A stretch of 64,000 nucleotides of DNA from Haplodiscus bocki (lineage: Eukaryota), in assembly GCA_965655095.1 (NCBI GenBank), contig OZ296659.1, positions 30,566,001 through 30,630,000 on the forward strand, in the 5' to 3' direction. This document shows, in pieces, positions 1 through 33,603 of this stretch. Each line of letters starts with the position of its first letter. The first letter of the stretch is position 1. The position numbers and the translations under genes are program-made. The notes under the pieces are model-generated. The model searched no databases. It saw nothing but the letters and a program-made list of their open reading frames with translations, and was not told the DNA's origin.

Positions 1-3000
1 CACCTGTATGTCCTTTCGCGAACTCTCAATATTCAAAAACAATATTCTAAGAAGTTTTTTCAAGGACACAAACCCAGAGTTTTGTTCCTGATATCAAAAA
101 TCTGAATAGAAACCAACCTGCCTAAAATATTGGGGGTATTTGATGTGTCCTGGTGTCAAGAATACTTTTACCCTAAAACTTTTTGAGTGTTTTTTCTTCC
201 AACGACTGTCTTCTTTAAAGATGAATATCTAAAGGCGCAAAAACGGTGATGAGTTTTTATGTTGATCTGCTAACAATATGTGAATCTAGTGCACCTTGTT
301 ATCTCTGTTTTTAATGAACTACACTTGACTCTGAAGGCAAAGTCCGGAAGAAATTCCTTGATAACTCAAGTGAGGTTTCATTTGATTTCAAAAACTAAAA
401 ATTAGAGATTTTTTGGTACTCCAGTCTGCCATCGTAAACAGGACAAACCCTATTCCCACAAACTTGTCCATATTTTGGTCATCTCGAACCATTTTGAACG
501 AACATCGCCCTTTTGTCTTTGATTTTTTCCATCAATTTTTTCTTCAAAACATATATTTTGTTGAAAGATTTTGAGGAACAATTTTGTTGTTTGCATTCCT
601 TGTGTCCCAAATCTGGCAGACCGAACCGTCCAAAATAAGGCAAGATATCCAATTTTTTTGCTCTTTGAAAACATCGTCAAAATCAAACGCTTGTTTGCTC
701 TCCAGGCTCATCTCAATTGACAGTCTTTCCACCGTTTAAAGGTTATCCAATAGATTTAGAGCATATCTTGCCTTCTGCGCTGAGAAAATGAATAACCTAA
801 AAGAAACAAATTTTTGAGACTCGGTCTTTCCATAATTAACACAACATTTTACTCGCTCTTACAAGCGTTTTTTTTCCTTCAATTAGATATTCGACAGTTT
901 TTTAGCTAAAAAACTGGTTGGCAGCAACTTTTGTCGACCTGTCTTTAACTTTTCACTCAGCACGATTGATAGAACCTACAAAGACATGTATTTTACCGTG
1001 ACTTGTTGCAAGTTTCAAACTATGTTCACTCGAAGAAAAGACTGCATGTCGTTTCACAAGGTCCTATTACTCAAAAAAACTAATCTGAGAAGTTATTTGA
1101 TGACACGAAGGGACAGTTTTGTTCCGAATAGCGGCACTCTGAATAGCGACTAACCTGCTTAAAATTTTGGGGATACTCAAGTGTCATGGTTTTCAGGCTT
1201 AAGTTACCCGAAACCTACTTATGTGGTTTTTCATTCACGGACTGTCTGTTTCCTCAGAAAAAATGGATTACTTCAAAGCAATGTTGCTGCTGGGTTTTCC
1301 TTTTGAGCTGCTAGCACACTGGAAAAGTGTTGCAACTTATTTTCTCTATTTCTAATCAGTTACCTCTGACTCTGATAAGATTGTCTAGAAAAGATTCATT
1401 GAGGAATCAGTCAATATTTACAATACAATTAGGAGCCTGGTTGTTAAAGTTTTAGTGGTATTGCTGCCTGTCTTTTTAATCAAGACCATCGGTTTTTCCA
1501 ACAAAATCCTTAGGTTTTCGGTTAATTGAAAAGATTTTGAAAGCTGTATACCCTATTGTGTCTGATTTATTTTCTCATTCAAAACTTGCAATTTTTGGGA
1601 CGATTTCGAAAAATAAAATTGTGTTGTGCATTCCTTTCGTTCACACAATGGTAGACCAAACTGCCCAGAAAATCCAACTTGTCCTAACTGTTGAGCTCAG
1701 AAAACATGTCCAAAACTACGACTTGAGTGTTTCAAAGGCGTATCCCAATTGACTGTGTTTTACAATAAAAAAATATCCATTAGATATAAAGCAGTTATCA
1801 CTCATTGCACCCGGATGATGATCGTCTCCAAAAAAAAACAAAAACTGCAGATATGGTTTCCCTCAAGTAACACACAACTTTACTCTTCACTTATTAGATG
1901 GTTTCTTTTCATCAAAACGTCCTTCGACGGTTATTTTGCCGGGAAAAATCATTGCAATAACTTCTTCTGACGTGTGTTTGACTTCATAGTAAGCATAAAC
2001 GATGGAATTTACAAGAACGTGCAAATCACGGCGATTGTTGCAAGTTTTAGACTTTGATCCCCCAAAAACGCCTGTAGATCGTTTCTCAAATTCTCAAGGT
2101 TCAAAAGTCACATTCTAGGAAGTTTTTTGACGACAAAAAGAAAAGTTCTGTTCCCAAATTCGCCACCCTGATTGGAGACAAAACTGCCCGAAAGTTTGCG
2201 GGTAATGATGTTTCATGGCAATCAGGTTGAAGTTCTTCGAAACCTACCTATGTGTTTTCTCATTCACGGACTATCGTTTTCTTCAGAGAAGAAAGGATTA
2301 CTTCAAAGCAATGTTGCTGATGGATTCTTCTTTTCAGCTGCTAGCATAGTTGAAAGTTATTGCAAACTCATATCTATATTTTCAATCATTTACCTCTGAC
2401 TGTGATAAGATTATCTGGAGAAGTTTCATCGAGAAATGAATTGACAGTCACAAAACATTCAGGACGCTGATTGTTAAAGGAACAGTGGTATGCTGCCTGC
2501 CTTTGTAAACATGACCATCGATTTGTCCCACAAAATCCTTAGAAATTTGGGGAATTCAAAAGATTCTGAAAGCTCTGGTCCGTATTGTCTTTGATTTATT
2601 CCGTCAATTTCTCATTGGGAACTTGTGATTTTTTGGAGAAAAGCGAGGAATAAAAATTTGGCTTGCATTCCTGGCATTCACAATATGGTAGACCGAACGG
2701 CCCAGAAAGTCCAAAGTGTTTAAATTACTAATCTTCAAAAACATGTTTCAAAACTACGACTTGAGTGTTTTCAAAGCATATCTCATTTGACTGTCTTCTG
2801 CAATTAAAGGATATCCTTTAGATTTAAAGTAGTTCTCGATCCTTGCGCCGAGACGACAACCAGCCTCAAAAAAAAGGAAACAAAAAAAGCAAGTTTCAAA
2901 CTCTGATCCCTCAAAAAATCACCTGTATGTCCTTTCGCGAACTCTCAATATTCAAAAACAATATTCTAAGAAGTTTTTTTAAGGACACAAACCCAGAGTT

Positions 3001-6000
3001 TTGTTCCTAATATCAAAAATCTGAATAGAAACAAACCTGCCTAAAAATTTGGGGGTTTTTGATGTGTCCTGGTGTCAAGAATACTTTTCCCCTAAAACTT
3101 TTTGAGTGTTTCTTCTTCCCACGACTGTCTTCTCTAAAGAGAGGAAAATCTAAAAGCAAAAATGGTGATGAGTTCTTTTGTTGATCTGCTAACAATATGT
3201 GAATCTAGTGCAACTTCTTATCTCTGTTTATAATGAACTACACTTGACTCTGAAAGCAAAGTCCGGAAAAAAATCCTTGATAACTGAAGTGAGGTTTCAT
3301 TTGATTTCAAAAACTAAAAATTAGAGTTTTTTTGGTACTCCAGTCTGCCATCGTAAACAGGACAAACCCTATTCCCACAAACTTGTCCATATTTTATTCA
3401 TCTCGAACCATTTTGAACGAACATCGCCCTTTTGTCTTTGATTTTTTCCATCAATTTTTTCTTCAAAACATATTTTTTGTGGCATGATTTTGAGGAACAA
3501 TTATGTTGTTTGCATCCCTCGCATCCAAAATCTGGCAGACCGAACCGCCCGAAAAAGATCAAGATATCCATTTTTTTTGCTCATCGAAAACATCGTCCAA
3601 ATCAAACGCTTGCTTGCTCTCCAGGCTCATCTCAATTGACAGTCTTCCACCGTTGAAAGGTTATCCAATAATTTTAGAGCATATCTTGCACCCTGCGCTG
3701 AGAAGATGAATAACCTAAAAGAAACAAAATTTTCAGAGTGGGTCTTTCCATAATTAACACAACATTTTACTCGCTCTTACAAGCGTTTTTTTTCCTTCAA
3801 TTAGATATTCGACAGTTTTTTAGCTAAAAAACTGGTTGGCAGCAACTTTTGTCGACCTGTCTTTAATTTTTCAGTCAGCACGATTGATAGAACATACAAA
3901 GACATGCAATTTGCCGTGAATTGTGGCAAGTTTCAAACTCTGTTCACTCGAAGAAAAAATGGCTGTATGTCGTTTCTCGAAGTCTTAATACTCAAAAAAC
4001 GTAATCTAAGAAGTTATTTGATGACAAAGGGGGAGAGTTTTGTTCCTAATAGCGAGCGGCAATCTGAATAGAGACAAACCTGCCGAAAAAGTTTCGGGCT
4101 ACTCATGTGTCATGATTTTCAGGCTTAATTTACTCGTAATTTACCTATGTGTTTCTTAATCGCGGACTGTCTTTTTCGTGAAAAAAGAGGATTACTTCAA
4201 AGCAATGTTGCTGCTGGGTTTTCCTTTTGAGCTGCTAGCACACTGGAAAAGTGTTGCAACTTATTTTCTCTATTTCTAATCAGTTACCTCTGACTCTGAT
4301 AAGATTGTCTAGAAAAGATTCATTGAGGAATCAGTCGATATTTACAATACAATTAGGAGCCTGGTTGTTAAAGTTTTAGTGGTATTGCTGCCTGTCTTTT
4401 TAATCAATACCATCGGTTTTTCCAACAAAATCCTTAGGTATTCGGTCAATTGAAAAGATTTTGAAAGCTGTATACCCTATTGTGTCTGATTTCTTTTCTC
4501 ATTCAAAACTTGCAATTTTTGGGACGATTTCGAAAAATAAAATTGTGTTGTGCATTCCTTTCGTTCACACAATGGTAGACCAAACTGCCCAGAAAATCCA
4601 ACTTGTCCAAACTGTTGAGCTCAGAAAACATGTCCAAAACTACGACTTGAGTGTTTCAAAGGCGTATCCCAATTGACTGTGTTTTACAATAAAAAAATAT
4701 CCATTAGATATAAAGCAGTTATCACTCATTGCACCCGGATGATGATCGTCTCCAAAAAAAACAAAAACTGCAGATATGGTTTCCCTCAAGTAACACACAA
4801 CTTTACTCTTCACTTATTAGATGGTTTCTTTTCATCAAAACGTCCTTCGACGGTTATTTTGCCGGGAAAAATCATTGCAATAACTTCTTCTGACGTGTGT
4901 TTGACTTCATAGTAAGCATAAACGATGGAATTTACAAGAACGTGCAAATCACGGCGATTGTTGCAAGTTTTAGACTTTGATCCCCCAAAAACGCCTGTAG
5001 ATCGTTTCTCAAATTCTCAAGGTTCAAAAGTCACATTCTAGGAAGTTTTTTGACGACAAAAAGAAAAGTTCTGTTCCCAAATTCGCCACCCTGATTGGAG
5101 ACAAAACTGCCCGAAAGTTTGCGGGTAATGATGTTTCATGGCATTCAGGTTGAAGTTCTTCGAAACCTACCTATGTGTTTTTTCATTCACGGACTATCGT
5201 TTTCTTCAGAGAAGAAAGGATTACTTCAAAGCAATGTTGCTGATGGATTCTTCTTTTCAGCTGCTAGCAAAGTTGAAAGTTATTGCAAACTCATATCTAT
5301 ATTTTCAATCATTTACCTCTGACTGTGATAAGATTATCTGGAGAAGTTTCATCGAGAAATCAATTGACAGTCACAAAACATTCAGGACGCTGATTGTTAA
5401 AGGAACAGTGGTATGCTGCCTGCCTTTGTAAACATGACCATCGATTTGTCCCACAAAATCCTTAGAAATTTGGTGAATTCAAAAGATTTTGAAAGCTCTG
5501 GTCCCTATTGTCTGTGATTTATTCCATCAATTTCTCAATGGGAACTTGTGATTTATTGGAAAAAAGCGAGGAATAAAAATGTGGCCTGCATTCCTCGCAT
5601 TCACAATGTCGTAGACCGAACGGACCAGAAAGTCCAAATTGTTTAAAATGCTGATCTTCAAAAACATGTTTCAAAACTACGGCTTGAGTGTTTCCAAGGC
5701 AAACCTTAATTGACTGTCTTCTACATTTAAAGGATATCCATTAGACTTAAAGCAGTTCTCGCTCCTTGCACCGGGATGACGATCAAGCTAAAAAAAAGAA
5801 AACAAAAAATGCAAGTTTCAAACTCTGATCCCTCAAAAAATCACCGTGTATGTGGTTTCTCGAGATCTCAAGATTCAAACACAATATTCTAAGAAGATTT
5901 TTAATGACGAAAAAAAAGAGTTCTAACCCTAATATCGGAAATCTGAATAGAGACAAACTTGCCTAGGATTTTGGGGGTTTTTGATGTGTCTTGGTGTTCA

Positions 6001-9000
6001 GAATACTTTTCCGCGAAAACTAATTGAGCGTTTTTTCTTTCACGGAGTGTCTTTTTCAAAGAAAGGAATATTTAGAGGCAATGATGGTGATGAGTTCTTC
6101 TGTTGATCTCCTAACAATATGGAAATCTAGTGCAACATGTTATCTTTGTTTCTATTGAACTACATGTGAAACCGAAAGAATAGTCGGGAAAAAATTCATC
6201 GACAACGCAAATGACGTTTCATTTGAATTCAATAAACTAAAGATTAAAGTTTTTTTGGTATTCCAGCCTGCCATCGTAAACAGGACAAACCCTATTTCCC
6301 ACAAACGTCTTCGAATTTCCGTCATCTCGAACCTTTTTCAACGAACGTTGCCCTTTTGTCTTTGATTTATTCCATCACATTTTTAATCAAAACATATGTT
6401 TTGGTGAACGTTTTTGAGGAACAATTATGTTGCTTGCATTCCTTTCTTCCGAAATCTGGCAGACCGAACCTCCCAAAATAATGCAAGATCTGCATTTTTT
6501 TTGCTCTTCGGAAACATCATCCAAGGCAAACGCTTCTTTCCTCTCCAGGCACGTCTCAAAGGACAGTGTTCCATCTTTCAAAGGTTATCCAACAGATTTA
6601 GAGCACGTCTTGCTCCCTGCGCTGAAAAAATGAGTAAACTAAAAAAACAGAAATTTTCAGAGTGGGTTTTGCCATAACTAACACAACAATTTATTCACTC
6701 TCACCAGGGGCTTTTTTTCCTTCCATTAGATATTCGACAGTTCCTTAGTTGGAAAATTTGTTGGCAGCAAGTTTTATCGACGTGTCTTTAACTTTATAGG
6801 AAGCACGATTGATAGAACCTACAAAGACGTGCATTTTACCGTGACTTGTTGCAAATTTCAATTTTTGTTCACTCGAAGAAAAGCCTGTATGTCGTTTTGT
6901 CAAGGCCCTAATACTCTAAAATTTTAATCTAAGAAGTTATTTGATGACGGGAAGGGAGAGTTTTGTTCCTAATAGCGGCACTCTGAACAGAGACAAACCT
7001 GCCGAAAATCTTAGGGGTACTCATGTGTCATGGTATTCAAGCTTAATTTACCCGAAAACTACCTCTATGTTTTTTTCACGGACTGTCTTTCTCCTTCAAA
7101 AAACATTTTATTTAATTTCAGAAATTTAAAAGTTAAGATTTTTTGGAACTCTAGCTTGCTATTGTAGTAAGCAAGACAAACCCTTTCAAACCCTATTTCC
7201 CACAAACATCTTCAGATTTCGGTCATCTCGAACGGTTTATCAAAAACGTCACCGTATTGTCTTTGATTTCTTCCATCAAATACATATGATCAATACATAT
7301 GATTTGTTGAAATATTTTGAGGAACAATTATGTGGTTTGCAACCCTCGCATCCAAAATCTGGTAAAGTAAACCGCCCAAAAAATGCAACTTCTATGTTTT
7401 TTGCTCTTCGAAAATATCATCCAAACCAAATACTTGATTGTTCTCCAGGCACATTTCAATTGACAATCTTCTACCGTTGAAAGGTTATCCAATAGACTTA
7501 GAGCAGATCCTGCACCCTGCGCTGAGAAGATGAATAACCTTAAAAAAACAAAAACTTCAGTACCAGCGGTTTTTTTCCTTCAAGTACATTTTCGTCAGTT
7601 CCTTTGCTGGAAAACACGCTGGCAGCAAGTTTTGTTGACGTGTCTTTAACAATTGCAGGAAGCACGACTGCGAGAACTTACAAAGACGTGCAATTGACAG
7701 TGACTTGTTGCAAATTTCAAACTCTCTTTCCTTGGACAAAAAATACCCTGATGTCGTTCATCAGGGTCTCATTACTCAAAAAACCTGTTCTATGAAAAAA
7801 TTTAATGCAGGAAGGGAGAGTTCTGATCCTAATATCGGTACTCTGAATAAAGACAAACCTGCAGAAATTTTTGGAAGTAATCATGTGTCATGGTATTCAA
7901 GCTTAAATTACCCGAAAACTACCTGTATGTTTTGTTTTCACGGACTTTTTTTCCTTCAAAAAGACAGAATGTCTTTTTTTTAGAGAAGAGGAATATTTTA
8001 AAGAATTCTTGCTTACGGTTTCTCCTTTTCAGCTGTTAGCATAATGGAAAGTTATTGCAACCTATATTCTTTTTTTTGATTCAATTAGCTCTGACCCTGA
8101 TAGGATTGTCTAGAAAATTTTCATCGAGAAAACAGTTGACTTTTACAATACCTTTAGGAGGCTGATTGTTAAAGATACAGTGGTATTGTTGCTTGCATTT
8201 GTAAACATCACAATCGTTTTTCCCACAAAAACTTTAGATAGTCGGTCATTTAAAAAGATTTAAAAATCTGTTCTTCTCTCTCTTTGATTGATTCCAACAT
8301 TGGTCATAATTGGTGTTTTCTTGAAAAAATTCGCGGAACAAAGATGTGGTGTTCATTCTTCGCATCCGGGATCTGGTAGAACGAACTACAAAATGCAACT
8401 TGTCCAACTTTTTGCTCTTCGAAAACATCTCCCAAAACTACAACTTGATTGTTCTCCAGGCACAGCTCAAATGACTGTCTTCTACGATTAAAGTATAGCC
8501 GTTAGATTTGAAGCAGTTCTCGCTCCTTGCGCCGGGATGATGATCAATCTAAGAAAAGCAAAAATTGCAGTTGGGGTTTTCCCCAATGAGCACAAGACTT
8601 TAGTTTACTTTTATTAGATTGTTTCGCTTTATCGAGACGTTCTTCGACGGTTAATTTGCTTGAAAAATTCGTTGCAGTAACATCTTTTGATGTGTGTTTG
8701 ACTTCACAGGAAGCACGACTGAGGGGACTTGCAACAACTTGCGATTTACGGTGAATTGTTGCAAGTTTCAAACTCTGATCTCTCGCAAAATCACCTGTAT
8801 GTCGTTTGTTAAGGCCTCAAAACTCAGAAATCATAATTTAAGAAGTTCTTTGATGACAAGAAGGGAGAATTTTCTGCCTAATGTCGACACTCTGACTCAA
8901 GTGTGGCAGTATGGTCCAAAACAAATTCATCATTAACGCAATTGACATTTTTTTTTAAATCCGAAGAGCTAAATATTAAAGATTTAGCAGTACTGTTACC

Positions 9001-12000
9001 TGCCATCGTGAAGAATATTAGCCCTTTTTCCCACAAACTTCTTCAAGTTTCGTTCATCTCGAACAATTTTTTAAAAAAGTCGCCTTATTTTCGTTGGTCT
9101 ATTCCATCAAACTATCATTCAAAACTAATGGTTTTTTGAAATAATTTGATGAACAGTTATATGGTTTGCACTCCTCGCAACAAAAATCTGGTAGACCGAA
9201 CCGCCCATAAATATGCAACTTTTGCATTTTTTTTACTTTTCGAAAACCTCTTCCACAACTGCAACTTTATTATTTTCCAGGTGTATCTCAAATAACAGTC
9301 TTCTACATTTGAAATGCTATCCATTAGACTTAGAGCAGATCTTGCTCACTGCGATAGAAAAAAGAGCAACACAGAAAAAGAAAAACTTCACAGTGAGTTT
9401 TCCCCACTTCTAATACAACAATTTATTCGATCTTGCCAGTGGTATTCTTTCCATCAGGTAGATCTTCGACAGTTCCTTTGCTGGAAACTTTGCTTGCAGC
9501 AAATTTTGTCTACGTCTCTTTAACTTTTTAGGAAGCACAACCGATGGATTATACGAGGACGTGCGACTTACGGTGATAAGTTGCAAGTTGCAAACTCTGA
9601 TCCCTCGAAAAGTCACCTGTATGTCATTTCGCAAGGTCTCCGAACTCAAAAATCCTATTTTAGGTTGCTATTTGATGGCAGGGAAGGAGAGTTCTGTTCC
9701 CTTTATCGGCACTCTGAATAGAGGCAAACCTGCCCAAAGTTTTGGTTGTATTGATGTGTCATGGTGCTCAGAATAATTTCCCCCGATAAGTAACTGTGTG
9801 TTGTTTCTTTCACGGACTGTCTTCTTCATAGAGAGGAATATATAGAGGCAATAATGGTGATGAGTTCTTTTGTTGATTTGTTAACAATATGGAAAACTAG
9901 TGCAACTTGTTATCTCTGTTTCTATTGAACTGTACTTGACTCCGAAAGCAAAGTCCGGAAAAAATTCATGATTTACGCAAGTGACGTTTCATTTGAATTC
10001 AAAAAGCTAAAAGTTAAAGTTTCCATGGTACTCTAGCCTGCCATCTTAAACAGGACGAATCCTTTTTCCCACAAATGTCTTCAAATTTCGGTCATCTCGA
10101 TCCATTTTCAACGAACGTCGCCCTTTTGTCTTTGATTTATTCCATCAAAGTTTTAATCGAAACATATGTTTTGTTGAACGATTTTCAGGAACAATTATGT
10201 TGTTTGCATTCCTCGCATCCGAACTCTGACAGACCGAAGCGCCCAAAATAATGCAAGATATCCAATTTTTTTGCTCTTCGAAGACATGATCCAAATCAAA
10301 CGCTTGTTTGCTCTCCAGACCCATCTCAATTGACAGTCTTCTACCGTTGAAAGTAGTAGTATAGAAAGGGAAGTATTTTCCCCGAATACTACCTATGTGG
10401 TTTTTCTTCAAACGAATGTCTTTTTTCCATGGAGAAGGGGAATAGTTCAAAGCATTTTTGCTGATGGTTTCTCTTTCTGAGCTGCTAGCATAATGAAAAG
10501 TAATTGCAACCTAATTTCTCTTCTTTTAATCAATTACCTCTGACTCTGATAGGATTGTCTGAAAGAATTTCATCGAAGATCAATTGACATTTACAATACC
10601 TTTAGGAGGCTGATTGTTAAAGATACAGTGGTATTGTTGCTTGGCTTTGTAAACATAACGATGGTTTTTCCCGAAAATCCTCCGGAATTCTGTCATTTAA
10701 GAAGATTTTGAAAGCTATTCTCCCTATTGTTTTTGATTTATTCCATCAATTTCCTCTTCAGGACTTGTGATTTGTTAAAAACATTCGAGGAACAAAAAAG
10801 TAGTTTTCATTTCTCGCATCCAGGATCTGGTAGACCGAACTACCCAAAAATGCAACCTGTCAAACTTTTTGCTCTTCGAAAAAATCTCTCAAATGTACAA
10901 CTGGATTGTTCTCCAGGAACAACTCAATTGACAGTCTTGTATCACTGAAAATTTATTTATTAGACTTAGAGCATCCTGCATACTGCGCCGAAGAGATGAT
11001 TAACTTAAAAAAACGAAAATTTCAGAGTGAATTTTTGCCTAACTGACACATCAATTTACTCGCTCTTGCCAGTGGTTTTCTTTCCATTAAGTAGATAAGC
11101 GACAGTTCCTTTACTGGAAATCTTGTTTGCAGCAAGGTATGACTTCATCTTTTTTGACATTTTCGGAAGCACAACCGATAGAATATACGAGGACGAGCAA
11201 TTTACGGTGATTTGTTGCAAATTGCAAACTCTGATCCCTCGAAAATTCAGCTGTATGTCTTTTCGCCAGGTCTCAAAACTTAAAAATCCCATTCTATGAA
11301 GTTATTTGTTGACAAGGAGGGACAATTCTCTTACTAATATCGGCACTCCGAAAAGAGACAAAACTGCCGGAATTTTTGGGGGTATGGATATGTAATGGTA
11401 TTCAGGCTCATTTTCCCCGAATACTACGTATGTGTTTTTTCTTCGAATGAAAGTCTTTGTTCCAAAGAAAAGAGGAATATTTCAAAGCTTTGTTGCTGAT
11501 GCGTTCCTTTTCCAGCTGCTAGCATAAGTGAAAGGTATTGAACTTCTTTTATGTATTTTAAAGGAAATAAATTTGACTCTGATAAGATTGTCCAGAAAAA
11601 CTTCAGCGAGAGATCAACTGAAATTTACAATACAATTAAGAGGCTGAATGTTAAAGATACAATCGATGAAAAAAGATGTGGTGTGCATTCAAAAAGAAAG
11701 GACTATTTTAAAGCAATGTTGTTGATGGGTTCTTGTTTTCAGCTGCTAACATAACGGAAAGTTAATGCAACCTATTTTCCCTATTTTAATTCAATTACAT
11801 TTGAATCTGATAGGATTGTCTCGAAAAGTTTCCTTGAGGACTTTACTGACATTTACAAATTATTCGGGAGGCTGATTGTTAAAGGTACAGTGGTATGTTG
11901 CCTGCCTTTGTAATTTTGACCATCGATTATTCCCACAAAATCCTTAGATATTCGGTTGTATAAAAAGATTTGGAAATTTTTAAAGCTCTCCTCCCTATTT

Positions 12001-13070
12001 TGTTTGATTTTTTCCATCAATTTGTCATTCGAAACTTGTAATTTGTTGGACAATTTCGAGGAAAAAAAATGTGGTGTGCATTCCTCGCATTCACAATATT
12101 GTAGTCCAAGTGCCCAGAAAATGCAACTCGTCCAACTTCTTGATCTTCGGAAAACATGTTCCAAAGCTACGACTTGATTGTTTTCAAGGCATTTCTCAAT
12201 TGACTTTTTTTACAATTAAAAGTAAATCCATTAGACTTGAAACAATTCTAGCTTTTGCGCTGGGATGATGATCGACTTCAAAAAAAAGAGAAACTCCAGA
12301 CTGAGTTTTCCGCAATGATTACACAACATTCCTCAATTATTAGATGGTTTCCTTTTATCAAGACGTCTTTCGACGGTTATTTTGCTGTGGAAATTCTTTG
12401 CAATAACTTCTTCTGAGGTGTGTCTGACTTCACAGGAAGCACGATTGAAAGGATCTTTAAAAACGTGCATTTCACGGTGATTTGTTGCAAGTTTCAAAGT
12501 CTGATCTCTCGAAAAATCACCTGTATGTAGTTTCCCAATTTCTCTTGGTTTAGAAACCATAATCTAGGAATTTTTTTGATGAAGAAAATGAAGAGTTCTG
12601 TTCCTAATATTGGAACTCCGAATACAGACAAACCAGCGCAAAACTTTGGGAGATTTGATGTGTCTTATCCTTCAGACTCATATTCTCCGAAAGATAACTG
12701 TGTGTAGTTTCTTTCACGGTCTGTCCTCGGTAAAAAGAAGATTTTCCCAAAGCAAGGTTGTTAATAAGTTCTTCAGTTGAGCTGCTAGTAATATGGAAAA
12801 CTATTGCGACTTTTTACCTCTAAATTTTTGAATTACACTTGACTCTGATAGGATAGTCCGAAAATGTCACGGATAACGCAATTGGCTTTTTATTTAGAGT
12901 AGGAAAATTATCTTTTGAAGGTTTAGTGGTACTCCAGCCGGCCAACGCAAACAAAACAAACTCTATTTCCCACAAAGTCTTTTGATATTCGGTCTTTCGG
13001 TTTTTGAAGAAAGTCTCCCTATTGTTTTTGATTTATTCCATCAAACAATCAATCAAAACATATGATATAT
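1..13070. repeat. Complex satellite array: ~0.85-1.05 kb diverged monomers with a ~2.92 kb three-monomer higher-order repeat in the left half
   Basis: Sequence at 1 (cacctgtatgtcctttcgcgaactctc) recurs at 2920 and, diverged, at ~5842. Near-identical ORFs lie at 1537/4461 and 2172/5095. The marker ttgcaagtttcaaactctg recurs at about 1010, 2040, 2890, 3930, 4965, 5810, 6855, 7710, 8760, 9585, 11220 and 12490. Confidence 0.95.
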
Positions 13071-13074
13071 TTCG

Positions 13075-13900
13075 TTTGGACTTCCGAAAAAGTGTCAAAG
13101 GCGTACATCATCTATTCATCTTTGTTTGATTCACGTACTCGACTTGATTGGTTTTTTGACAAAACCCTCATATGGGTAAAACTTTTTCAGGTTCATCACG
13201 AAAACAGAGTCATTGTGAACAGAATGTACCCGGATTGAAAACCTGGTTTCGGTGGCTGACCGCAAGGTTCTGTTTCGGGGCCAATCTTGTTCATGGATCT
13301 GTCAAATCGTTACCCCAAGCTGTTTTGTCCTTAATACAACTGTCTGCGGGCGATGCTAATTCACACGAAACGATCGACAAAAAACAGTCAGAGAATGCTC
13401 CTTAAAAGGACCTGTATATTTGGCTCTATTCAAGATGACTTGCCGATACTTTGACGGTGAAATATTCAGCTTAGTCTTCAAAGCTATGGTTCGCCCTCGT
13501 CTGGATTGTGCTATTCAAGTCTGGTACATTACACTGAAAAAAATGCGGATTTTTTGAATTTGTCCAGAGCCGTGCTATAAGATTTTTGGAAATGCTAATA
13601 TGAATGTCGTGTCACGAGAAACTGAAGATGCTAGATATACCGAGAATTGAATATAGAAGACAACGAGGCAGAACAGTTCAAGTAAACAATGTTCTGATCA
13701 ACCTGTACAACTCAACTGCGCGTGGAGGACTTCTACAGTCAAACTCGAGACACTAGGGGACATTCTCAGAAGCTGCTGGTTCAGAAAGCCGGAATACAAG
13801 TCCGGAAACGATCATTCGCGGTAGTCGCTTCCAGCGACTGGAATTCGTTGCCTAGAAATGTTGTAGAGAGCCCAAACCTTTGAAGCCTTCAAGTCTAACC
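13075..13900 (+). mobile_element. Decayed CR1-type LINE, RT and 3' end fragment
   Basis: Broken-frame motifs: LDFRK, QGSVSGPILF (PQGSVLGP-like), FKAMVRPRLDCAIQVW, VQSRA, EYRRQRG, and TRGHSQKLLVQKAG...SDWNSLPRNVVESP, the typical CR1 ORF2 C-terminus (TRGH...WNxLP..VV). Confidence 0.85.
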
Positions 13901-14898
13901 TTGACATTTTGACGGCTCAGAAATTTTGACACCAACAGATTCACCTGATGGAGATGAATAAACACGTACGAGCTGGTCGAAGAGGTACGTACCTGGAACC
14001 ATATTACCTGAACTGAACTGCTCTAGTTTTCTCTCGAATTTTGTTAGGATGAAGACGTAATTGAAAGTAGAAGGAAACTGGCAAGTCATGAAATTGCACT
14101 TTTGAGTCTACTGAGCATTTATATGTGATCCGTGGTCGGCCCTCATCGGAGCCTCGCGTGAGGCTCTAAATGTCCATGGTGGATTTGTTTTCTTTGGAAA
14201 ATTATGGCCTGTCGGACAAAAACTCGGTGAAATGTTTTGTTCCTAAGTTTTAGTGACACAACCGCGGACGTTTTGGTAGAAGGACTTTGTGGTACGATGT
14301 TTACTGCCTGAGAGTCATCAGTGCAATAGTTTTTGGTGTGTGAATATGCAAACATACTTTTCGTAAATAGAACCGTTCCGTCCGCATCTGGGACCTCTGA
14401 TGCTCGTTCTGAAACTAGGAAAAACGTGGAAATTTCGAATTTTAATGCCGACATACTGAACAGTTTCAACAGTAGTTCGTTGTGTCAAAGTGAAAAAAAA
14501 ACAATTTCTCTGGAATAGTCAATCAAGGGATATCAGTAATTTCGAAAGTTAACGCCGTCGAGGAGTGATCCTGCTCTGTTAGTCATAATTCTTTGCGTTA
14601 CAGAGGTGCAAAGCAAATCAATTGCCTGATAGGAACAGGTGTGGGTTCGGTTGATTTTTCGACAAGAATCAAGTATAAAACATTAAACTCCATGCAACAT
14701 GTAGTAGTAAAAGATCAAATTGCAAATTTAATTTTTCAGTGAGATTGCTCATTATGCGCTGTTACTGTATTCGGGTCCGCTTTTTATATTTTGGAGAGTC
14801 CCCTCTGATGGTGCTATTTGTATTATTATGTATATTAAAAAGTTAATAAATAGTTTTTCAGTTTATTGCATGTCAGAGGCAGCAGTTATGGCCTCTTA

Positions 14899-15470
14899 AT
14901 GGTTTTTATTCTCGGAGCAAGCAGTCTTCATCACGCGACCGAAGCCTGGAAACGGTGTAAACGACGACATCTATTCGATTCGAACAATATTGCAATCCCT
15001 GGACTGCTTTTAAATCGACAGAGCAGAGCCCAGCACAAACTCGTCCAGGTAATCCAAAACGAAATCTCAGCAGACGAAGGTTTTATTTTGTGACACGACG
15101 CCATAAACAACTCCATCGGGAAGCACACAGTCGACTCACGTCCCCCCTGTCCCCTGAAGAACTGGTATCAGAACTCAAAAACCTTAAAGGTCTGTGCGGC
15201 ATCGTCTACTGTCAGCGGTCGGGTACCAAAAATATCTACAGCTACCTGGCAGAAACCGGTATCCCAGTCCTCAATCTTCTGAAAGATCTCCTTTCGAAGC
15301 GGAAGTAGAAAGACCAGAAGCTACTCGCGAAATACCAGGAACTCCATCAAGACTACAGACTTGAAATAAAATCCCTTACGTTCCTGAGAAGTTACGGTGG
15401 TGATAGCCGTCTGATCAGAAACAAGAGACAGCGACTCTCCAAAACCAGAAGAGACAAAGGACTCAAGTGA
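14899..15470 (+). pseudogene. LINE upstream ORF0, SGNH/GDSL-esterase-like, ~190 codons with 2 stops and 1 frameshift
   Basis: Reconstructed across frames: MVFILGASSL...AIPGL...GFIL*HDAINNS...[fs]PLSPEELVSEL...GIVYCQRSG...KRK*KDQKLLAKYQELHQ...RNKRQRLSKTRRDKGLK*. Motif order resembles SGNH blocks I, II, III and V. Confidence 0.5.
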
Positions 15471-15566
15471 GGCTAAGGTAAATAGTTTCCTTCCTTGTTT
15501 CTCCCAGCCTTCTTTTGCTGGTGTCTGGGATTAATTTCCCGGGCTAAGGTAAAAGAAACTACAATC

Positions 15567-16467
15567 ATGGTGAGAAAATGCAAGACGTGTAAAAACAACA
15601 TTGCTGCCTCGGAAAAAACCTATTGTTGCGTGGGCTGCAACCAGCACATGCATCTTACCACCGAATGCACAGCTCTCTCAAACGTTGCCATCAACGGAAT
15701 CAAGGAACTCGGTAACAATTGCATGCTCATGTGCAACACTTGCCTTGACAATGGAGAACGAGACGTGTTCATTAGATGCAGAGCACAAACGAAGGTCGAG
15801 TCCGTAATCTCAGACTTGAAAATCGATGAAAAGCTCTCCAATCTGGAAAATAAGTTCTCCGAACTTGTCGACTCGAAACTTGCAAATCTAATTTCGAAGT
15901 CATGTGACAAAATTGAACAAAACTATCCTAAAGTGACAGCCGAAACGCTCGAGAAAGCTGCCTCCGTGGTAACTTCCTAAAACTCCAAAACAAAAGTGAA
16001 ATCTGAAGATTTCAACATCTCAGCAAGCTTCAGAATACAAGGGATCGCTGAAGATCCCGAGAAAACTGTCGGTGAGAATCTTGTCCGAACCACCGAAAAA
16101 GTCAAAAATATCCTACAATCCTTCAATGTCAATACCGAAATCACTTCAATGAAGCGACTTGGAAAAATTGACAAAACAAGAATCAAACCAAGGAGCCTTC
16201 TTGTTACGGTCCGGAATGAGTACGGTAAGAAGCTAATCATGGCGAAGAGCGTGGAAAACCGCGAAGTCTTAACGGAAGAGTCCATCTACTTCCTTCATCA
16301 AAGACGTCATCAAAGAGAATCAAGTGCTGAAAAAGAGAAAAGAACTTCTCGATGAAGGCGTTCCTCGTGAGAAACTAAAAATTTTCAACTTTGAATTATT
16401 CAATGATGGTAAAAAGGTAGCGATGGACGCAACCGAGCTCCCCCCCAGGGAGCAAAGTTCATTTTGA
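15567..16467 (+). pseudogene. LINE ORF1 (N-terminal PHD finger, coiled coil, C-terminal nucleic-acid-binding region), with an in-frame stop at 15978 and a frameshift at ~16290
   Basis: CKTC...CVGC..HMH...C...CNTC PHD pattern. ORFs 15495 and 15996 share a frame. The C-terminus ENQVLKKRKELLDEG...KIFNFELFNDGKK ends in TGA at 16465-16467. Confidence 0.85.
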
Positions 16468-19317
16468 CTAGACAATGTAAGTTTACTACTTTTAAACGCT
16501 CGAAGGCTCCTAAACTACGAACGTAGACTCAAACTCAGAAACGCCATTCTTGTTCAAAAGTATAACATAATCTGTATCACTTGAAGCTGGCTCACTTCAG
16601 ACATTAACTCGGCGGAGCTCCTCATGAGTGACTTCACCATCGATCGGGCAGACAGACCCTCTACATCCGGCAAACCCTCTCCTCATGGTGGTGTGCTCAT
16701 CGCCATCAGGAACACTTACTATTCTGAATTCATTTTTGCCAATCTCCCCGAATGTTGCCTTCAATGCACAATAAGGATTTCAGGAGAAGACATTGTGATA
16801 AGGGTCTTCTACTCGCCCCCACATGGTAGCCCATACAGATACTCCATAGACGATTTCGTAAATCTGATCAGGGGAACCCCAAAAGGAAAACCAGTCATAA
16901 TCTGTGGTGACATCAATTTCACCGACACAAACTGGGAAACTCGAACCAGCACCGACTCATTCGAACAAGCTGTGATTGACATACTCGATGACCTAATGTA
17001 TGATCAATCGATCAATTTTCCCACCTGTGGCTCGCGAACTCTTGATGTTGCCTTTTTCTCCAACTGCACCGTAACGGCTGCGGTAGACGAGAACTTCAAT
17101 GAGATTTACAACTGCTCAGAGCATCTTGCCATCAGACTGACAATTGAGAGACTGACTTGTTCTGAAAAGATCTTCATAGAAAACTTCAGAAGCTTCGGGT
17201 CAGCCGACTTCAGCAGCCTGCGTGACCACCTCTGCCGGAACCCATTTTCCCCCACTTGTTTTTCCAACATCGACAACACGTGCCTCGAACTATACCAACA
17301 TTTTGATCGAGCCATTGACATGTTCGTCCCAACCCGTACGAGACATCGCCAGAATTTGCCCCCTCTCCCCCCCGGATAACCTCCGAATCTTCTCACCTGT
17401 TGAAGAAAATGCAAACCCAGAAATGGTTACTAGCAGCTAAACCTACCAGCTACAGGCGGAACAAAATAGTCGAACTAGAGAACCTAGTTTCCAGGTCATG
17501 TGAAGAAGACAGAGTTCATTACCAGGAGAAACTGTTCAACACGCGCGACACTGGTAGAATTTTCAAGCCTTTAAAGTGTCTCAAAAAGACAGCCAGTCTT
17601 CCGTTATCAATACAATTCAGAAATGAAAGTACTCAAAGTGCCTTCAGAAAAGCGGAACTGTTCAACGAATACTTCCATTCAGTCTTCGCTCCAAAGGTGG
17701 ACTACAACTTGAACAACATCCCAGTGAGCAATGTTTCCCTAACAAATTTCAGCATTTCAAAAGCCAAATTACTGAGCATTATCTCCGATCTTGACGTAAG
17801 CAAAACGCGAGGCCCAAATGGCTATCCGCCTTCCTTCTTTGTTAATTCTGGCCAAGGTATGATTCATGCTCTTCATCTCTTGCTCAAAAACAAAAAGATT
17901 GCGAAAGATTCCCAAATGCTAGAAGCGCGGTGTTGTTTCGCCCATTCATAAGAAAGGCGAAAAATTCCTCGTGGAAAACTATAAACCAATATCACTGCTA
18001 GACATTGACAGCAAAATTCTAGAAAAATGCTTGTATTCGCCACTCTACGAGCACTTTGTTACCTCCCTGAGCTCACGCCAACATGGTTTCGTTCGCCAGA
18101 AATCGACAATCACGAACATGCTCGCTTTCCTCCAAGCTGTCTACAAAGCCCTCGATAAGGATCAACACAGTGATGTCGTAGCTTTTTACACAGATTTCAG
18201 TAAGGCTTTCGACAAAGTATCCCATTACCTTCTGTTGTGCAAAGTAGCAAGTCTAGGCGTAAATGGTTGTTTGCTCAAACTTCTCCATGATTATCTCTCC
18301 GACCGAAAGCAAAGTGTGCGCGTTGACAACGTCAGGTCTCGGCCAAAGGACATAACTAGCGGTGTCCCCCAAGGGTCTATCTTGGGACCACTTCTGTACT
18401 GTTTTTTTATAAATGACCTCCCAGAAGCCCTAGCTTTCAGCGACTCATACCTTTTTGCAGATGACCTCAATTTTCTTTCCGTAAACCTAACAGAACTCCA
18501 AGTGCAAACCGATCTTCAATCACTTGAAATATGGGTGAGTAAGAATCGAATGGCTCTAGCAACGGACAAATGTGCTAAACTGACATTCCGAGGGAAGGAC
18601 ACAATTTTCAAACTCTTCGGAGAACCCCTGAAAACCGAAGCCAACGTAAGAGATTTAGGTATTACGTTGACCAGCGATCTCACGTGGAACATGCACATAT
18701 CAAAAAAAGTAGCGAAAGCAAACAGTGTTCTCTACTTACTAAGAAGAAATGTCTCTCAATCTGTAGGTGCTCGAATCAAACTCGGACTCTATAAATCCCT
18801 AGTCTTACCCATTCTTCTCTATGGTATCCAATGCATTCACCTGTCAAAAGCGTCAATGATCTTTCTTGAAAAACTCCAGAAAAGAGCCGTTAAGTGGATA
18901 TGCGGAACAGGAAAATATGGACAACAACTTCGCTTTCTGAACATTCTGCCGTTGCCTATGCACATCCAAATTTTGAACCTGCTTACCTTGTCAAACTTTC
19001 GTACCAACTTTTGTACCAGCAACCCCACAACTGTGACTCTTTGACAGAGTCAAACTGCGCCCTCAAGAAGCAAAGAAGTCTTCAAGCTTCCCAAAACTAG
19101 AACTGAAAAAGCGAGGAACGAATTCGTGTTCAGAACTTCCCGTCTGGGAAACAGAGTAAGTCAACACGCAAACTTCGAGGAACCTGTTGGACTGAAAAGA
19201 CGTCTGATCAAGCTATTTTGGAGGGTCGTGGAAGCTACCTACGACGAACTCAACTCCTGCACCTGGCTGATTGAGTGCGACTGCCAGAACTGCAGGGAAA
19301 AGTGGACAATTTTCTAA
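16468..19317 (+). pseudogene. LINE ORF2 (apurinic-type endonuclease + reverse transcriptase + C-terminal Cys motif), fragmented
   Basis: Starts LDNVSLLLLNARRL in frame with ORF 16624-17379 (APE). Continues in 17400-17951, 17971-19044 (RT, YLFADD) and 19126-19317 (CTWLIECDCQNC). Stop at 16582 and several frameshifts. Confidence 0.93.
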
Positions 19318-19566
19318 ACTCAACTCGGGATCAAACTCCCCTCAGTTTACTGTAAAGCCTCAACAACAACAACAATATATCTACATCTATTTACTGTTAT
19401 TTCCACATTTGTTTTATTATATAATGGTATTCCTTATAATTGGTTCTCATCAGAGAAATTAAATTCTTCTTCTCTTCTTTTATTAGTATACAAAAAAGTT
19501 AAAATTTTCATTGGATAAATGCTTTTATCATGTTTCAACGTCTGTTTTCTTTTAAGATTAATATTA

Positions 19567-29324: not shown

Positions 29325-30931
29325 TTATAATGGGTTAAAACTTGGAAAATTTTGAGTCTTTTCCATTTTGCACGAACACAGAATAAAGGTGAAGAAGGGA
29401 CCTTACGGACCAATCAGCGAGTGATATACCGCAAATTCAAAATTGATCTAGTTTTTTTATGAATCTTCTTTGAAGATACTTTTACTCTAATAAACACTGG
29501 TAGTAGGAACGGCCGAGAAGTTAATTGTTGAAAGTATTCAATTCAGGCTGTGCAAAAGCATAGGATTTTGTTAATTTTATAAACATGGAAATTACTTCCA
29601 TTTGCTTTTCCAACTTGGGTACAATGATTAGTAGGAAGTAGCTAGTAGTGGGGTCACTGGCCAAGTTAAAGTGGGGTTAAAGTTTTGAATTTTATCGGCG
29701 CTGGTTTCCGTGCAATGGTATGGGCATTTCCAAGCTGTGGGAATGTAGGGACTCACAAAATTCGTGTAAATATGGAGATAATTCCAACTTGTGTAAAGGG
29801 GTAAAAGAGGATAGGCTAAGTAGTCGGAGTGAACGGCGAAAATAAAGTTGGGACAGTTTTGAATTTCTAATCGGTTAGTATCCGGAGAGAGTGTGCCTAT
29901 TCGCAGGCTCTAGGAATGCAACGAATTACAAAACTCGCTGGAACAAGATTATTCCAACTTGGGTATAGCGGTTGGGGAACAAGGATTAAATAGTGGTAGT
30001 GACCGGACAATTAAATTTTTTCCTGAACACTTCCATGATTATCTTCTCTCGATCGGGTTCACGTGTTCTGTTGAATTAAAACGAGCTGACAGTAGAGGGC
30101 AAAGTTTCGATAAAAGGTCATTGGTTGCTTACATCAAAGGTCAACTTCCGTCATCCTGTTGTGATCAGCATAACGATTTTTCTAATTTGACGGTCTCAGC
30201 TTCACAGTGAAGATGTTTCAAAATCTTTTAAAAATTTTCCATTCATTGAATCATTTCGAGAAGAGTCCCCATCATAGCTAAAATAGTTTGTTTTCTGCAA
30301 AGTTTGTGGGCTAGTCCTGCGATTCTTACATTTGAGTTAGACGTTGCTATTATTCAATTTTATTCATATTGTCAAATTCGCGTTTCTGAAATTTTTCGAG
30401 CTGGTTCGCTTAATCAATCGAATAAATAGTTCGCTACGGGGCATAATTACTCGTTCCAGATCTTTTGATGCAAACACAACGAATTGAAAATTTTTAATTG
30501 GGTTGGGATGTCAGATTACATATTTGTTGGTTTGTTATGCGTCGACAACATTTACGAAGTTCCGTGGTACCCTCCTGAAGATTCCGACTCAAGGTGCCAA
30601 TCAAAACGGACCTCAGTGGGAGGAAATGCAACTAATAGTGCTATCGTATTTCAACAATTTATGTCGAAATATCACCCGGATGATGATGGCATTGTGCTTT
30701 TACATTCCGCAGTGTCAGATGACCTTTTATCGGAGAAGGCTTTGAATGAGCTGAAGCGTTTAAATATTTCACTCACTTGGTCAAGTTTTATCAAGGGTCA
30801 TATCTTGAGTGAGTCTGTCTGCATTGTGGCTTCGAAATCCGGGTCTAGAACTATTGTACACGACCCAGGGACGATTCCGGAAATCAGTTTCCAGAAACTT
30901 CCGGATGTTGATTGGAACCGAGTGAAATTAT
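29325..30931 (+). repeat. Internally deleted tandem duplicate of 30928-34027
   Basis: 29325-30009 matches 30928-31612, and 30007-30931 matches 33094-34027. Junction microhomologies are TTAT and ACA. Confidence 0.95.
30007..30210 (+). pseudogene. MEPCE: MEPCE 3' fragment (duplicate)
   Basis: TIKFFPEHFHDYL...NLTVSASQ* is nearly identical to the end of 32260-33297; the 5' part was removed by a 1484-bp deletion. Confidence 0.9.
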
Positions 30932-30933
30932 AA
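30508..30933 (+). pseudogene. KHK: Truncated ketohexokinase copy (N-terminal 141 aa)
   Basis: Near-identical to KHK residues 1-141 (3 aa differences). The TAA stop is created exactly at the duplication junction. Lacks the C-terminal GAGD catalytic motif. Confidence 0.88.
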
Positions 30934-32259
30934 TGGGTTAAAACTTGGAAAATTTTGAGTCTTTTCCATTTTGCATGAACACAGAATAAAGGTGAAGAAG
31001 GGACCTTACGGACCAATCAGCGAGTGATATACCGCAAATTCAAAATTGATCTAGTTTTTTTATGAATCTTCTTTGAAGATACTTTTACTCTAATAAACAC
31101 TGGTAGTAGGAACGGCCGAGAAGTTAATTGTTGAAAGTATTCAATTCAGGCTGTGCAAAAGCATAGGATTTTGTTAATTTTATAAACATGGAAATTACTT
31201 CCATTTGCTTTTCCTACTTGGGTACAATGATTAGTAGGAAGTAGCTAGTAGTGGGGTCACTGGCCAAGTTAAAGTGGGGTTAAAGTTTTGAATTTTATCG
31301 GCGCTGGTTTCCGTGCAATGGTATGGGCATTTCCAAGCTGTGGGAATGTAGGGACTCACAAAATTCGTGTAAATATGGAGATAATTCCAACTTGTGTAAA
31401 GGGGTAAAAGAGGATAGGCTAAGTAGTCGGAGTGAACGGCGAAAATAAAGTTGGGACAGTTTTGAATTTCTAATCGGTTAGTATCCGGAGAGAGTGTGCC
31501 TATTCGCAGGCTCTAGGAATGCAACGAATTACAAAACTCGCTGGAACAAGATTATTCCAACTTGGGTATAGCGGTTGGGGAACAAGGATTAAATAGTGGT
31601 AGTGACCGGACAGGTTTTCAATTCTGATCCGAAGTAGTATTCTGGCACGATCCTGGTATCTCTGATGAATTTTTCGTTGAAGTATGCCATGGGTGGCCAT
31701 CTTTCCTCGATTGAGATAAATGCTCTGAAATAAAAGTTTGGTCAAAACATCTCAGAATTCAGCATTGCAAGTTATGTTGCTCTTATTGCGCTGAGAGATG
31801 GCTGTTGAAAACTTTGAGAGATGGCTGTTGAAAACTTTCTAAAAACAAAGTGGTGGCATCAAAACTGAAAACGATGTGGAAGTTGAACGGGTCAAGTGCT
31901 TTGAATTGTTTTAACGCTATTTGCTTCGCTGCATATTCGGTTCTTTGACATACAACTTTTGGTTCAATGCTGCCTCTATACTAGAGGGAAGCTTTATTTG
32001 AATATTGATAGAATTCGCTCGCTCTATTGGAGGGCGGAAGTGTTCGAAGGAATACGCCACGGAAAAACATGTAAATGCCGGCGGTGACGCTGAATGAGAG
32101 TAGATTTATCCGGTTTTGTTATTCGAAAAACCGCAAACGTTTTTTGGGCCTTCATTTCTTTGTATCCCAGCATCTAAAATGATAATGGCTAACTTGGGAG
32201 TTCGTCGTTCTGCAATTTGGTCGTTTTTTAGAAATTGCTTTCTATGACTTGTATTTGTG

Positions 32260-33297
32260 ATGAAGCGAAGAGTTGATATCGAATCTGAAGAGATCCTAGA
32301 ACAACAAAGTCCTTCCTCAGAACAAAATGTGAATGGTACGAACAAAAAGAAGAAAAAAGTGTTCCCCTATGGCAATTACGATCAATATTACGGATACAGG
32401 AACCCTTCAAAATGTGATGATCCCAGACTTCTTTTCATTCCCAAGTGCTGGATCAAACACAAAGCCATTCTCGACATTGGATGCAATACCGGACATTTGA
32501 CCTTATCTTTAGCCAGATCGCATCGGCCTGCAAAAATAGATGCCATCGATATCGATGATCGATTAGTTGGAATCGCTAGACGTAATATTGTTTATTATCA
32601 AAATAAATGTGTCAAGTCTGTCGATTCCAATATCAATAACAATGAGGTAGCTGAATCAGTTGCGAAAGATTCTGAACCCAAGAATGATTTTCAGTTCGAT
32701 TCTATTTCTGCTAAAAACCAGAGAAAACATGGAAGGTCTGATCATGCATTCAACAGTAATGGGTCGTGCAATTTAAGGGGCAGTGCACTTGCTGACGTAG
32801 AAGAAGAAATCGACTGTAAACCTATCCGAGATATTGTAAAATTTACATGCTCTAATTACGCCTTGAAAAGCGATGACTTGCTTGACATGTGCAAAGAAGA
32901 ATATGACGTCATTATGATGCTATCTGTTTCGAAATGGATTCATTTAAATTTTGGCGATGAGTCACTTCGACGTTGCTTTCAGAGAATTTTCCGTCAACTT
33001 CGCCAAAATGGAATCTTTCTTTTAGAGCCACAACCTTTCGACTCGTATCGGAAAAAGAAAAATTTGACTCCCCAAATAGCTATTATTTACCCAACAATTA
33101 AATTTTTTCCTGAACACTTCCATGATTATCTCATCTCGATCGGGTTCACCTGGTCTGTTGAATTAAAACGAGCTGACATTAGAGGGCAAAGTTTCGATAA
33201 AAGGTCATTGGTTGCTTACATCAAAGGTCAACTTCCGTCATCTTGTTGTGATCAGCATAACGATTTTTCTAATTTGACGGTCTCAGCTTCACAGTGA
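32260..33297 (+). CDS. MEPCE: 7SK snRNA methylphosphate capping enzyme (Bin3 family), intronless, 345 aa
   Basis: FPYGNYDQYYGYRNP..DPRL, ILDIGCNTGHLTL (SAM motif I), DAIDID, YDVIMMLSVSKWIHLNFGD, LEPQPFDSYRKK: Bin3 domain signature. Confidence 0.93.
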   Translation: MKRRVDIESEEILEQQSPSSEQNVNGTNKKKKKVFPYGNYDQYYGYRNPSKCDDPRLLFIPKCWIKHKAILDIGCNTGHLTLSLARSHRPAKIDAIDIDDRLVGIARRNIVYYQNKCVKSVDSNINNNEVAESVAKDSEPKNDFQFDSISAKNQRKHGRSDHAFNSNGSCNLRGSALADVEEEIDCKPIRDIVKFTCSNYALKSDDLLDMCKEEYDVIMMLSVSKWIHLNFGDESLRRCFQRIFRQLRQNGIFLLEPQPFDSYRKKKNLTPQIAIIYPTIKFFPEHFHDYLISIGFTWSVELKRADIRGQSFDKRSLVAYIKGQLPSSCCDQHNDFSNLTVSASQ

Positions 33298-33603
33298 AGA
33301 TGTTTCAAAATCTGTTGAAAATTTTCCATTCATTGAATCATTTCGAGAAGAGTCGCCATCATAGCTAAAATAGTTTGTTTTCTGCAAAGTTTGCGTTTTA
33401 TGTGGCCTAGTCCTGCGATTCTTACATTTGAGTTAGACGTTGCTATTATTCAATTTTATTCATATTGTCAAATTCGCGTTTCTGAAATATTTCGAACTGG
33501 TTCGCTTAATCAGTCGAATAAATAGTTCGCCACGGGGCATAATTACTCGTTCCAGATCTTCTGATGCAAACACAACGAATTGAAAATTTTTAATTGGGTT
33601 GGA

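Follow-up and report, generated by a model that had tools for sequence, protein, structure and literature searches.

How long interspersed nuclear elements (LINEs) translate their second open reading frame (ORF2) is a long-standing question, and experimental answers exist for few elements (L1, SART1 and 2A-bearing LINEs). Here, we analyse the junction between ORF1 and ORF2 in a CR1-like LINE of Haplodiscus bocki. The element lies in a stretch of 64,000 nucleotides (assembly GCA_965655095.1, contig OZ296659.1, positions 30,566,001 to 30,630,000 of the forward strand), which is called the window below and whose positions are counted from its first letter. ORF1 of this LINE ends with TGA, and ORF2 continues in the same frame from the adjacent CTA. 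As judged from the sequences of a clade of 25 LINE families, this clade very probably makes its endonuclease-reverse transcriptase (RT) fused to ORF1p, through programmed readthrough of the stop codon.

Type II readthrough is marked by the motif UGA-CUA (PMC3159437). The same stop codon and +4 to +6 context are found in the alphavirus replicase and in vertebrate AQP4, OPRL1, OPRK1, MAPK10 and MDH1 (PMC3159437, PMC4132726). The type II systems and the LINE clade are alike in that the six letters are invariant, the seventh is mostly G and the in-frame extension is under purifying selection. Vertebrate genes with UGA-CUAG universally conserve the first six letters, and 12 nt on the 3' side are enough, with no conserved structure (PMC4132726); the LINE clade has the same pattern of six conserved letters without structure. 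Unlike in the type II systems, the LINE signal would gate a whole replicase of 950 aa, and no alphavirus-like 3' stem-loop was found.

Three further systems are close. Gammaretroviral Gag-Pol (type III) likewise joins a structural protein and a polymerase in one frame across a leaky stop (PMC3159437, PMC4132726). Gammaretroviruses use UAG-G with a pseudoknot, whereas the LINE clade has UGA-CUA without structure, and as no protease domain to cut the fusion was detected, the fusion would stay whole. The L1 and SART1 reinitiation systems and 2A StopGo in CR1, L2 and Ingi LINEs are likewise unconventional, low-level routes to ORF2 from one RNA that employ viral-type recoding (PMC5972666, PMC3708506). 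They yield a separate ORF2p, through an AUG or through peptide skipping, whereas the clade junction has no AUG, no spacer stop and no 2A, and a fusion is predicted. In Paramecium non-LTR (long terminal repeat) retrotransposons of Group 3, too, a stop codon separates ORF1 from an ORF2 in the same frame. For these, Guerin et al. (2017, PMC5405496) suggested translational read-through in one sentence, from consensus sequences, and their Table S3 gives "in-frame stop". Group 3 is a ciliate-specific clade for which the available part of that paper gives no context motif or test, whereas the present case is an animal CR1-like clade of 25 families with an invariant, known motif.

A full-text search of the literature found no UGA-CUA readthrough in LINEs; Repbase and most subscription journals lay outside it, and an earlier remark on CR1 in-frame stops may exist. 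There is nothing on LINE readthrough in the part of the Atkins review that was covered, and "readthrough", "read-through" and "stop codon" do not occur in the available main text of the paper on type IIC ORF1 elements (Metcalfe and Casane 2014, PMC4120745). What appears to be new is the clade-wide pairing of a known signal (UGA-CUA) with a known element type (LINE).

The TGA-CTA junction in the window's family and its clade

In the window, the junction reads AGT TCA TTT TGA CTA GAC AAT GTA AGT TTA CTA CTT TTA AAC GCT in one frame. An earlier note on this DNA had proposed an ORF1-ORF2 fusion by recoding here, and the TGA (16465-16467), the in-frame run from CTA to GCT and the ATG at 16624 that it gave are exact. 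The window copy is dead. Its ORF1 is broken by a TAA at 15978 and a frameshift near 16296-16302, and its ORF2 by a TGA at 16582 in place of Glu and by more frameshifts.

Other copies were taken from the 1.5 Gb genome, in which a search listed 40 at 94-97% identity; 30 were fetched and examined. TGA stands at the junction in all 30 and TGACTAG in 27, the others reading TGA-CAG (through a 1-nt deletion), TGA-CAA and TGA-CCA. As the copies are 94-97% identical, the TGA in 30/30 says little alone. ORF1 is open over 302-303 codons, from MVRK to the junction TGA, in 10/30 copies, with ORF2 continuing in the same frame, and in copies L003 and L006 ORF2 is open as far as the locus end (577 codons). 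Hence, ORF1 genuinely ends at this TGA, as the note had claimed. Copies L012-L014 and L016 stand in tandem with a spacing of 3.84 kb (G000 C3:24.30-24.32 Mb), probably by segmental amplification.

Further families were sampled by protein searches with four endonuclease queries and Pfam PF03372, with up to 150 matches listed for each. From these, 140 loci were fetched, selected on score tier and on the length of the open frame without regard to the junction, and 8 more came from a DNA search. Families were defined by clustering at 80% DNA identity, plus later additions, and the tree was built with FastTree. The 25 sampled families form one clade (support 0.998), with a median pairwise ORF2 identity of 29% and a root-to-tip distance of about 1.5 substitutions per site. 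An in-frame TGA-CTA is the commonest junction in 25/25 families; a sense codon is nowhere the prevailing junction, and no family shifts the frame.

Among 21 family representatives, T, G, A, C, T and A are each present in 21/21, and the 12 positions on either side all vary. Each representative was chosen for carrying the commonest junction of its family, so the relevant count is the one by family (25/25). The four families beyond the representatives (the L099 family, L265, L268 and L281) have TGA-CTA too. The L099 copy is only an apparent exception: it is 5'-deleted, and of the 7 further copies in its family 4 have TGA-CTA, one TGA-CAA, one TGG-CTA and one GGA-CTC. L167 belongs to the clade, and its contig begins after the junction. 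The earlier note had suggested checking whether TGACTAG is invariant. This holds for the first six letters; the seventh base is G in only 11/21 representatives (T 4, C 3, A 3).

CTA accounts for 16% of the Leu codons in the ORF2s of the clade. In each of five further columns with conserved Leu, 5-6 different codons occur, so that third positions are saturated elsewhere. Hence, the hexamer behaves as a nucleotide signal and not as a requirement for Leu. The spacing between the stop and the catalytic Glu ranges from 38 to 48 codons across families, with the frame always kept. No in-frame ATG precedes this Glu in 16/21 representatives, nor the catalytic Asn in 18/21. In the closest family pair, pN is 0.13 vs a pS of 0.53 over the first 52 ORF2 codons, which places the codons just after the stop under purifying selection. 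The true ORF2 stop is TGA in four families, where the next base is T or A and never C.

The shared frame, the invariant hexamer, the missing usable AUG and the purifying selection after the stop are thus directly visible in the alignments, and it is the invariance of the hexamer over 25 diverged families that goes beyond chance. Clade-wide TGA-CTA, fixed frame and missing ATG argue for the fusion by recoding that the note had proposed, and none of the sequence patterns that the note had named as refuting it was seen. Compared with type II readthrough sites (UGA-CUA/CGG), the clade has the conserved UGA-CUA and a selected in-frame extension without its own start, and it shows no sign of the 3' stimulatory structure, which viral sites usually have and the mammalian CUAG genes do not.

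ORF1 gives profile matches to L1 ORF1p (2yko, E 2e-4) and to the Pygopus PHD; its AlphaFold model (mean predicted local distance difference test, pLDDT, 78) has L1 ORF1p as top Foldseek matches, and the last 10 residues are disordered in the model, after a folded C-terminal domain (CTD). Pfam alone gave no ORF1 match over cut-off, and a protein search with ORF1 returned 44 relatives and no taxon or clade name. Four intact ORF2s carry Pfam PF03372, PF14529 and PF00078, and no RNase H match in Pfam. ORF2 codons 10 and 39 align with Asn14 and Glu43 of the L1 endonuclease (1vyb/8sp5; residue numbers counted from the alignment). These two are catalytic residues of the L1 endonuclease. A protein started at codon 53, the earliest in-frame ATG, would be without both.

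Most related families end in (AAC)n, (TAC)n, (TAA)n, (TTA)n or (CT)n tails, preceded by a short untranslated region (UTR), mostly of about 30-60 nt. Metcalfe and Casane (2014, PMC4120745) give a type IIC ORF1 (PHD and Transposase-22, with L1-like coiled coil, RRM and CTD) for LINEs of the CR1 and L2 lineages, and the present elements resemble these LINEs in ORF1 architecture, in an ORF2 with apurinic/apyrimidinic endonuclease-like (APE) and RT domains without RNase H, and in the microsatellite tail. With APE and RT but no RNase H, a type IIC ORF1 and a tandem-repeat 3' end, they have the make-up of APE-type LINEs of the CR1/L2 lineages. We call the window element CR1-like from this architecture and from general resemblance, the trees containing no named CR1 references.

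The TGA-CTA junction was not seen in the other LINE groups of this genome, which are single-ORF Ingi-like elements and groups with ATGs upstream. The former include a young single-ORF family (L112-L114, L119, L123 and L128), presumably Ingi-like, with open frames up to about 1570 codons and repeated zinc-finger-like segments ahead of the endonuclease. L119 contains a 2A-like GDIEENPG, and the same genome may therefore also harbour StopGo recoding of the viral type.

Proposed readthrough and its alternatives

In the proposed mechanism, most ribosomes would terminate at the UGA and release free ORF1p, and a few percent would insert an amino acid at the UGA and carry on to give ORF1p-X-ORF2p. Leakiness would arise from the primary context (CUA, often CUAG) and not from a 3' hairpin. 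ORF2p would be carried on the disordered tail of one ORF1p subunit, and the fusion could enter trimers together with free ORF1p bound to that RNA. In this way, it may keep the ORF2p:ORF1p ratio low and hold the enzyme on the ribonucleoprotein (RNP), much as in Gag-Pol. If readthrough operates, fusion to ORF1p would explain RNP assembly and cis preference in simple structural terms, and transposition would be sensitive to the termination efficiency of the host. Gene annotations in which ORF2 begins at its first ATG would then cut off part of the endonuclease and label intact elements as broken.

Several observations weigh against readthrough. A downstream stimulatory stem-loop, for which the earlier note had suggested a folding check, could not be detected in 22 families. 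Sliding 90-nt windows gave a mean z of 0.12 ± 0.25 after the stop, and long-range duplex energy at the junction was no better than at 14 control offsets. When synonymous codons were shuffled across 201 nt, z was -0.5 ± 0.3 vs -0.7 at the control. Outliers (L100, z -5.1; L078, z -4.0) have comparable counterparts at control offsets. 3' structure has been argued to be usual for efficient type II sites, and bare UGA-CUA of Sindbis virus gave about 2% readthrough in cells (both PMC3159437). With the structure missing, readthrough efficiency may therefore be low, a level that would suit a LINE. Moreover, an in-frame ATG precedes the catalytic Glu in 5/21 representatives (codons 8, 9, 10, 21 and 21). 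In three of these it also precedes the Asn, directly in two and copy-variable in the third. Finally, the 25 families descend from one ancestor and represent long maintenance of one signal, not 25 origins.

The alternative that survives best is termination-reinitiation without an AUG, in which ribosomes stop at the UGA and restart at or just after the adjacent CUA to give free ORF2p, as an extreme form of the coupling in L1 and SART1. AUG-independent translation of L1 ORF2 is said to have been reported by Alisch in 2006, and the codon that follows the stop never varies, which might hold for a start site too. CUA is not known to be recognised as a start codon. Reinitiation accounts for ORF2 in L1 and SART1 (PMC5972666, PMC3708506), and SART1 requires an AUG, overlapping the stop, and a downstream structure, neither of which was found at the junction. 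Reinitiation needs neither UGA over UAA or UAG nor a fixed ORF1 frame, both of which are invariant in 25/25 families. The switch to CAA-CUA in a second lineage (see below) is expected from readthrough only. We consider reinitiation improbable.

Dedicated decoding of UGA, either by selenocysteine insertion or by a host code with a context-dependent sense UGA, would explain why the junction uses UGA exclusively, and yet we judge it very improbable. Rfam, including the selenocysteine insertion sequence (SECIS), gave no match in 10 loci at gathering thresholds (L003 without its 3' end), and most 3' UTRs have just about 30-60 nt. The site lies in a variable linker and not at a Cys or Trp position. 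A changed code is at odds with the conserved Trp, which is TGG in 20/20, with the ORF2s that end in TGA in four families, and with TGA as the end of 4/6 long non-LINE ORFs of the window.

Still more doubtful is adenosine-to-inosine editing, by which the UGA would be read as Trp (UIG/UGG) in part of the transcripts. LINEs preferentially copy the RNA that encoded their ORF2p (cis preference); therefore, edited or spliced RNA should leave a mark in new copies, in the case of editing as TGG. One old copy (L258) indeed has TGG-CTA, but the 145 junctions comprise TGA 139, TGG 1, TTA 2, CGA 1, AGA 1 and GGA 1, and the five non-TGG changes are as expected from decay. No duplex was found at the site, and the six junction letters show no variant in four public contig sets, which are of unknown type, come from one study and were not used as evidence of expression.

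Least credible of all is removal of the stop by a small intron or trans-splicing with TTTTGACTAG as acceptor. The junction of the window family is indeed acceptor-like; a GT in a compatible phase lies about 60 nt 5' of it, and GTAAGT stands just downstream. However, the AG is missing in 10/21 families (seventh base T, C or A), and the segment is present in all fetched window-family copies, which spliced RNA would have templated without it. The four contig sets, aligned to an intact copy, contain no joints.

A second lineage and LINEs of other organisms

A further H. bocki family (L120, L124 and L231-L239; L120/L124 below) has ORF1 in frame across TGA-CAA-CTA in 11/11 copies and no Met ahead of the catalytic Glu. 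It falls outside the clade of 25 families and groups with two metagenome elements (support 1.0), which we take to be L2-like. L120/L124 is likely an L2-type LINE family; this label comes from architecture and general resemblance, as the trees contain no named references. Its context CAA-CTA fits CAR-YYA of type I readthrough, with UGA as stop vs UAG in tobamoviruses. CAR-YYA is the tobamovirus-type readthrough motif (PMC3159437), and placed after UGA it gave about 15% readthrough in the OPRL1 context (PMC4132726).

Metagenome contigs were scanned as well, with the best 80 of 160 confirmed loci taken. We dropped 6 loci in which no stop precedes the start of the contig, as well as 7 matching families of the H. 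bocki genome (L151, L153-L157 and L199); 57 families were left. TGA-C is present in 10/14 families with at least 120 open in-frame codons upstream vs 3/43 of the others (Fisher p 5e-6, with related families not independent); two of the latter three are cut by the contig start. The ORF1 RRM-CTD pattern is visible by eye in many of the upstream frames, and the ORF1 profile puts it in frame in 3/14.

These other organisms also add to the points that weigh against readthrough. Their context is looser, as the ten TGA-C junctions continue with CTA (3), CTC (3), CTG, CTT, CGC and CGT (one each), and 4/14 in-frame junctions are not TGA-C, with TGA-A/T in two and TAG-G in two.

On balance, we lean towards the wider view that, among animal LINEs of the CR1/L2 group, readthrough provides a third way to ORF2 that is widespread and has been overlooked. 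It would be kept as invariant UGA-CUA throughout a deep clade, attained anew with UGA-CAA-CUA by a second lineage, and present as UGA-C among many unrelated animals. The replicase would then be an uncleaved ORF1p-ORF2p fusion within an ORF1p trimer, the LINE counterpart of Gag-Pol.

Some metagenome elements have other stop contexts. L198/L201/L209 and L212/L213/L215 have ORF1 in frame across TAG-G, a type III-like context, and the L201 group has no ATG ahead of the catalytic Glu. In L164 and L226, two CR1-like elements that are related to each other, an upstream ORF of 293 codons is joined in frame through TGA-AGT or TGA-TGT, an atypical context, and again no ATG precedes the catalytic Glu.

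Features of the window

The features of the LINE copy are collected in the table. Alignment with other genomic copies limits it to a start at about 14832-14843 and an end at 19372-19378.

Features of the CR1-like LINE copy in the window
Feature	Position	Strand	Basis or remark
LINE copy, CR1-like, near full-length, about 4.5 kb	14837..19377	+	96-97% alignment with other genomic copies
ORF1: PHD finger, coiled coil, L1-ORF1p-like RRM-CTD, short disordered tail	15567..16467	+	303 aa in intact copies
TGA-CTA junction, ORF1 stop and ORF2 codon 1, candidate readthrough signal	16465..16470	+	G at 16471
ORF2: APE endonuclease and RT, about 947 codons in intact copies, broken here	16468..19317	+	
Out-of-frame ATG-TAA overlapping the GTAAGT donor-like hexamer	16475..16480	+	Window family only; not conserved in the clade (junctions of 22 families)
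Asn, ORF2 codon 10, corresponding to L1 endonuclease Asn14	16495..16497	+	Profile alignment to 1vyb/8sp5; Asn in 20/21 families
ORF2 codon 39, Glu in other copies (corresponding to L1 Glu43), TGA here	16582..16584	+	Glu in 21/21 families
Earliest in-frame ATG of ORF2, codon 53, 3' of both catalytic motifs	16624..16626	+	
RT domain RVT_1	17944..18660	+	Pfam PF00078, E 6e-29
Short 3' UTR with terminal (AAC)n tail	19318..19377	+	Sequence

The earlier note had cited a decayed minus-strand LINE with an in-frame TGA (43617-43615) as additional support. This falls away, as neither tblastn nor hidden Markov model searches matched ORF1, APE or RT within 38-48 kb; the sole ORF1 match in that interval, at 46.2 kb, is at chance level. 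Genomic look-alikes of the 43.6-kb segment are not LINE-coding and are without long ORFs, and the stop context is TGA-GCA. The candidate was rejected.

Elsewhere in the window, positions 1-13100 form a degenerate tandem array, in which periods of about 1.0 and 2.9 kb are nested and the units are 68-90% identical. Local duplications (685 bp at 99.7% and 954 bp at 96%) surround ORFs for a Bin3-type methyltransferase and a PfkB kinase at 29325-34027. Long uninterrupted host ORFs are found at 51109-52968 (PRMT-like, 619 codons) and 57160-60219 (Uso1/p115, 1019 codons), and both genes are apparently intron-poor, in a genome of 1.5 Gb.

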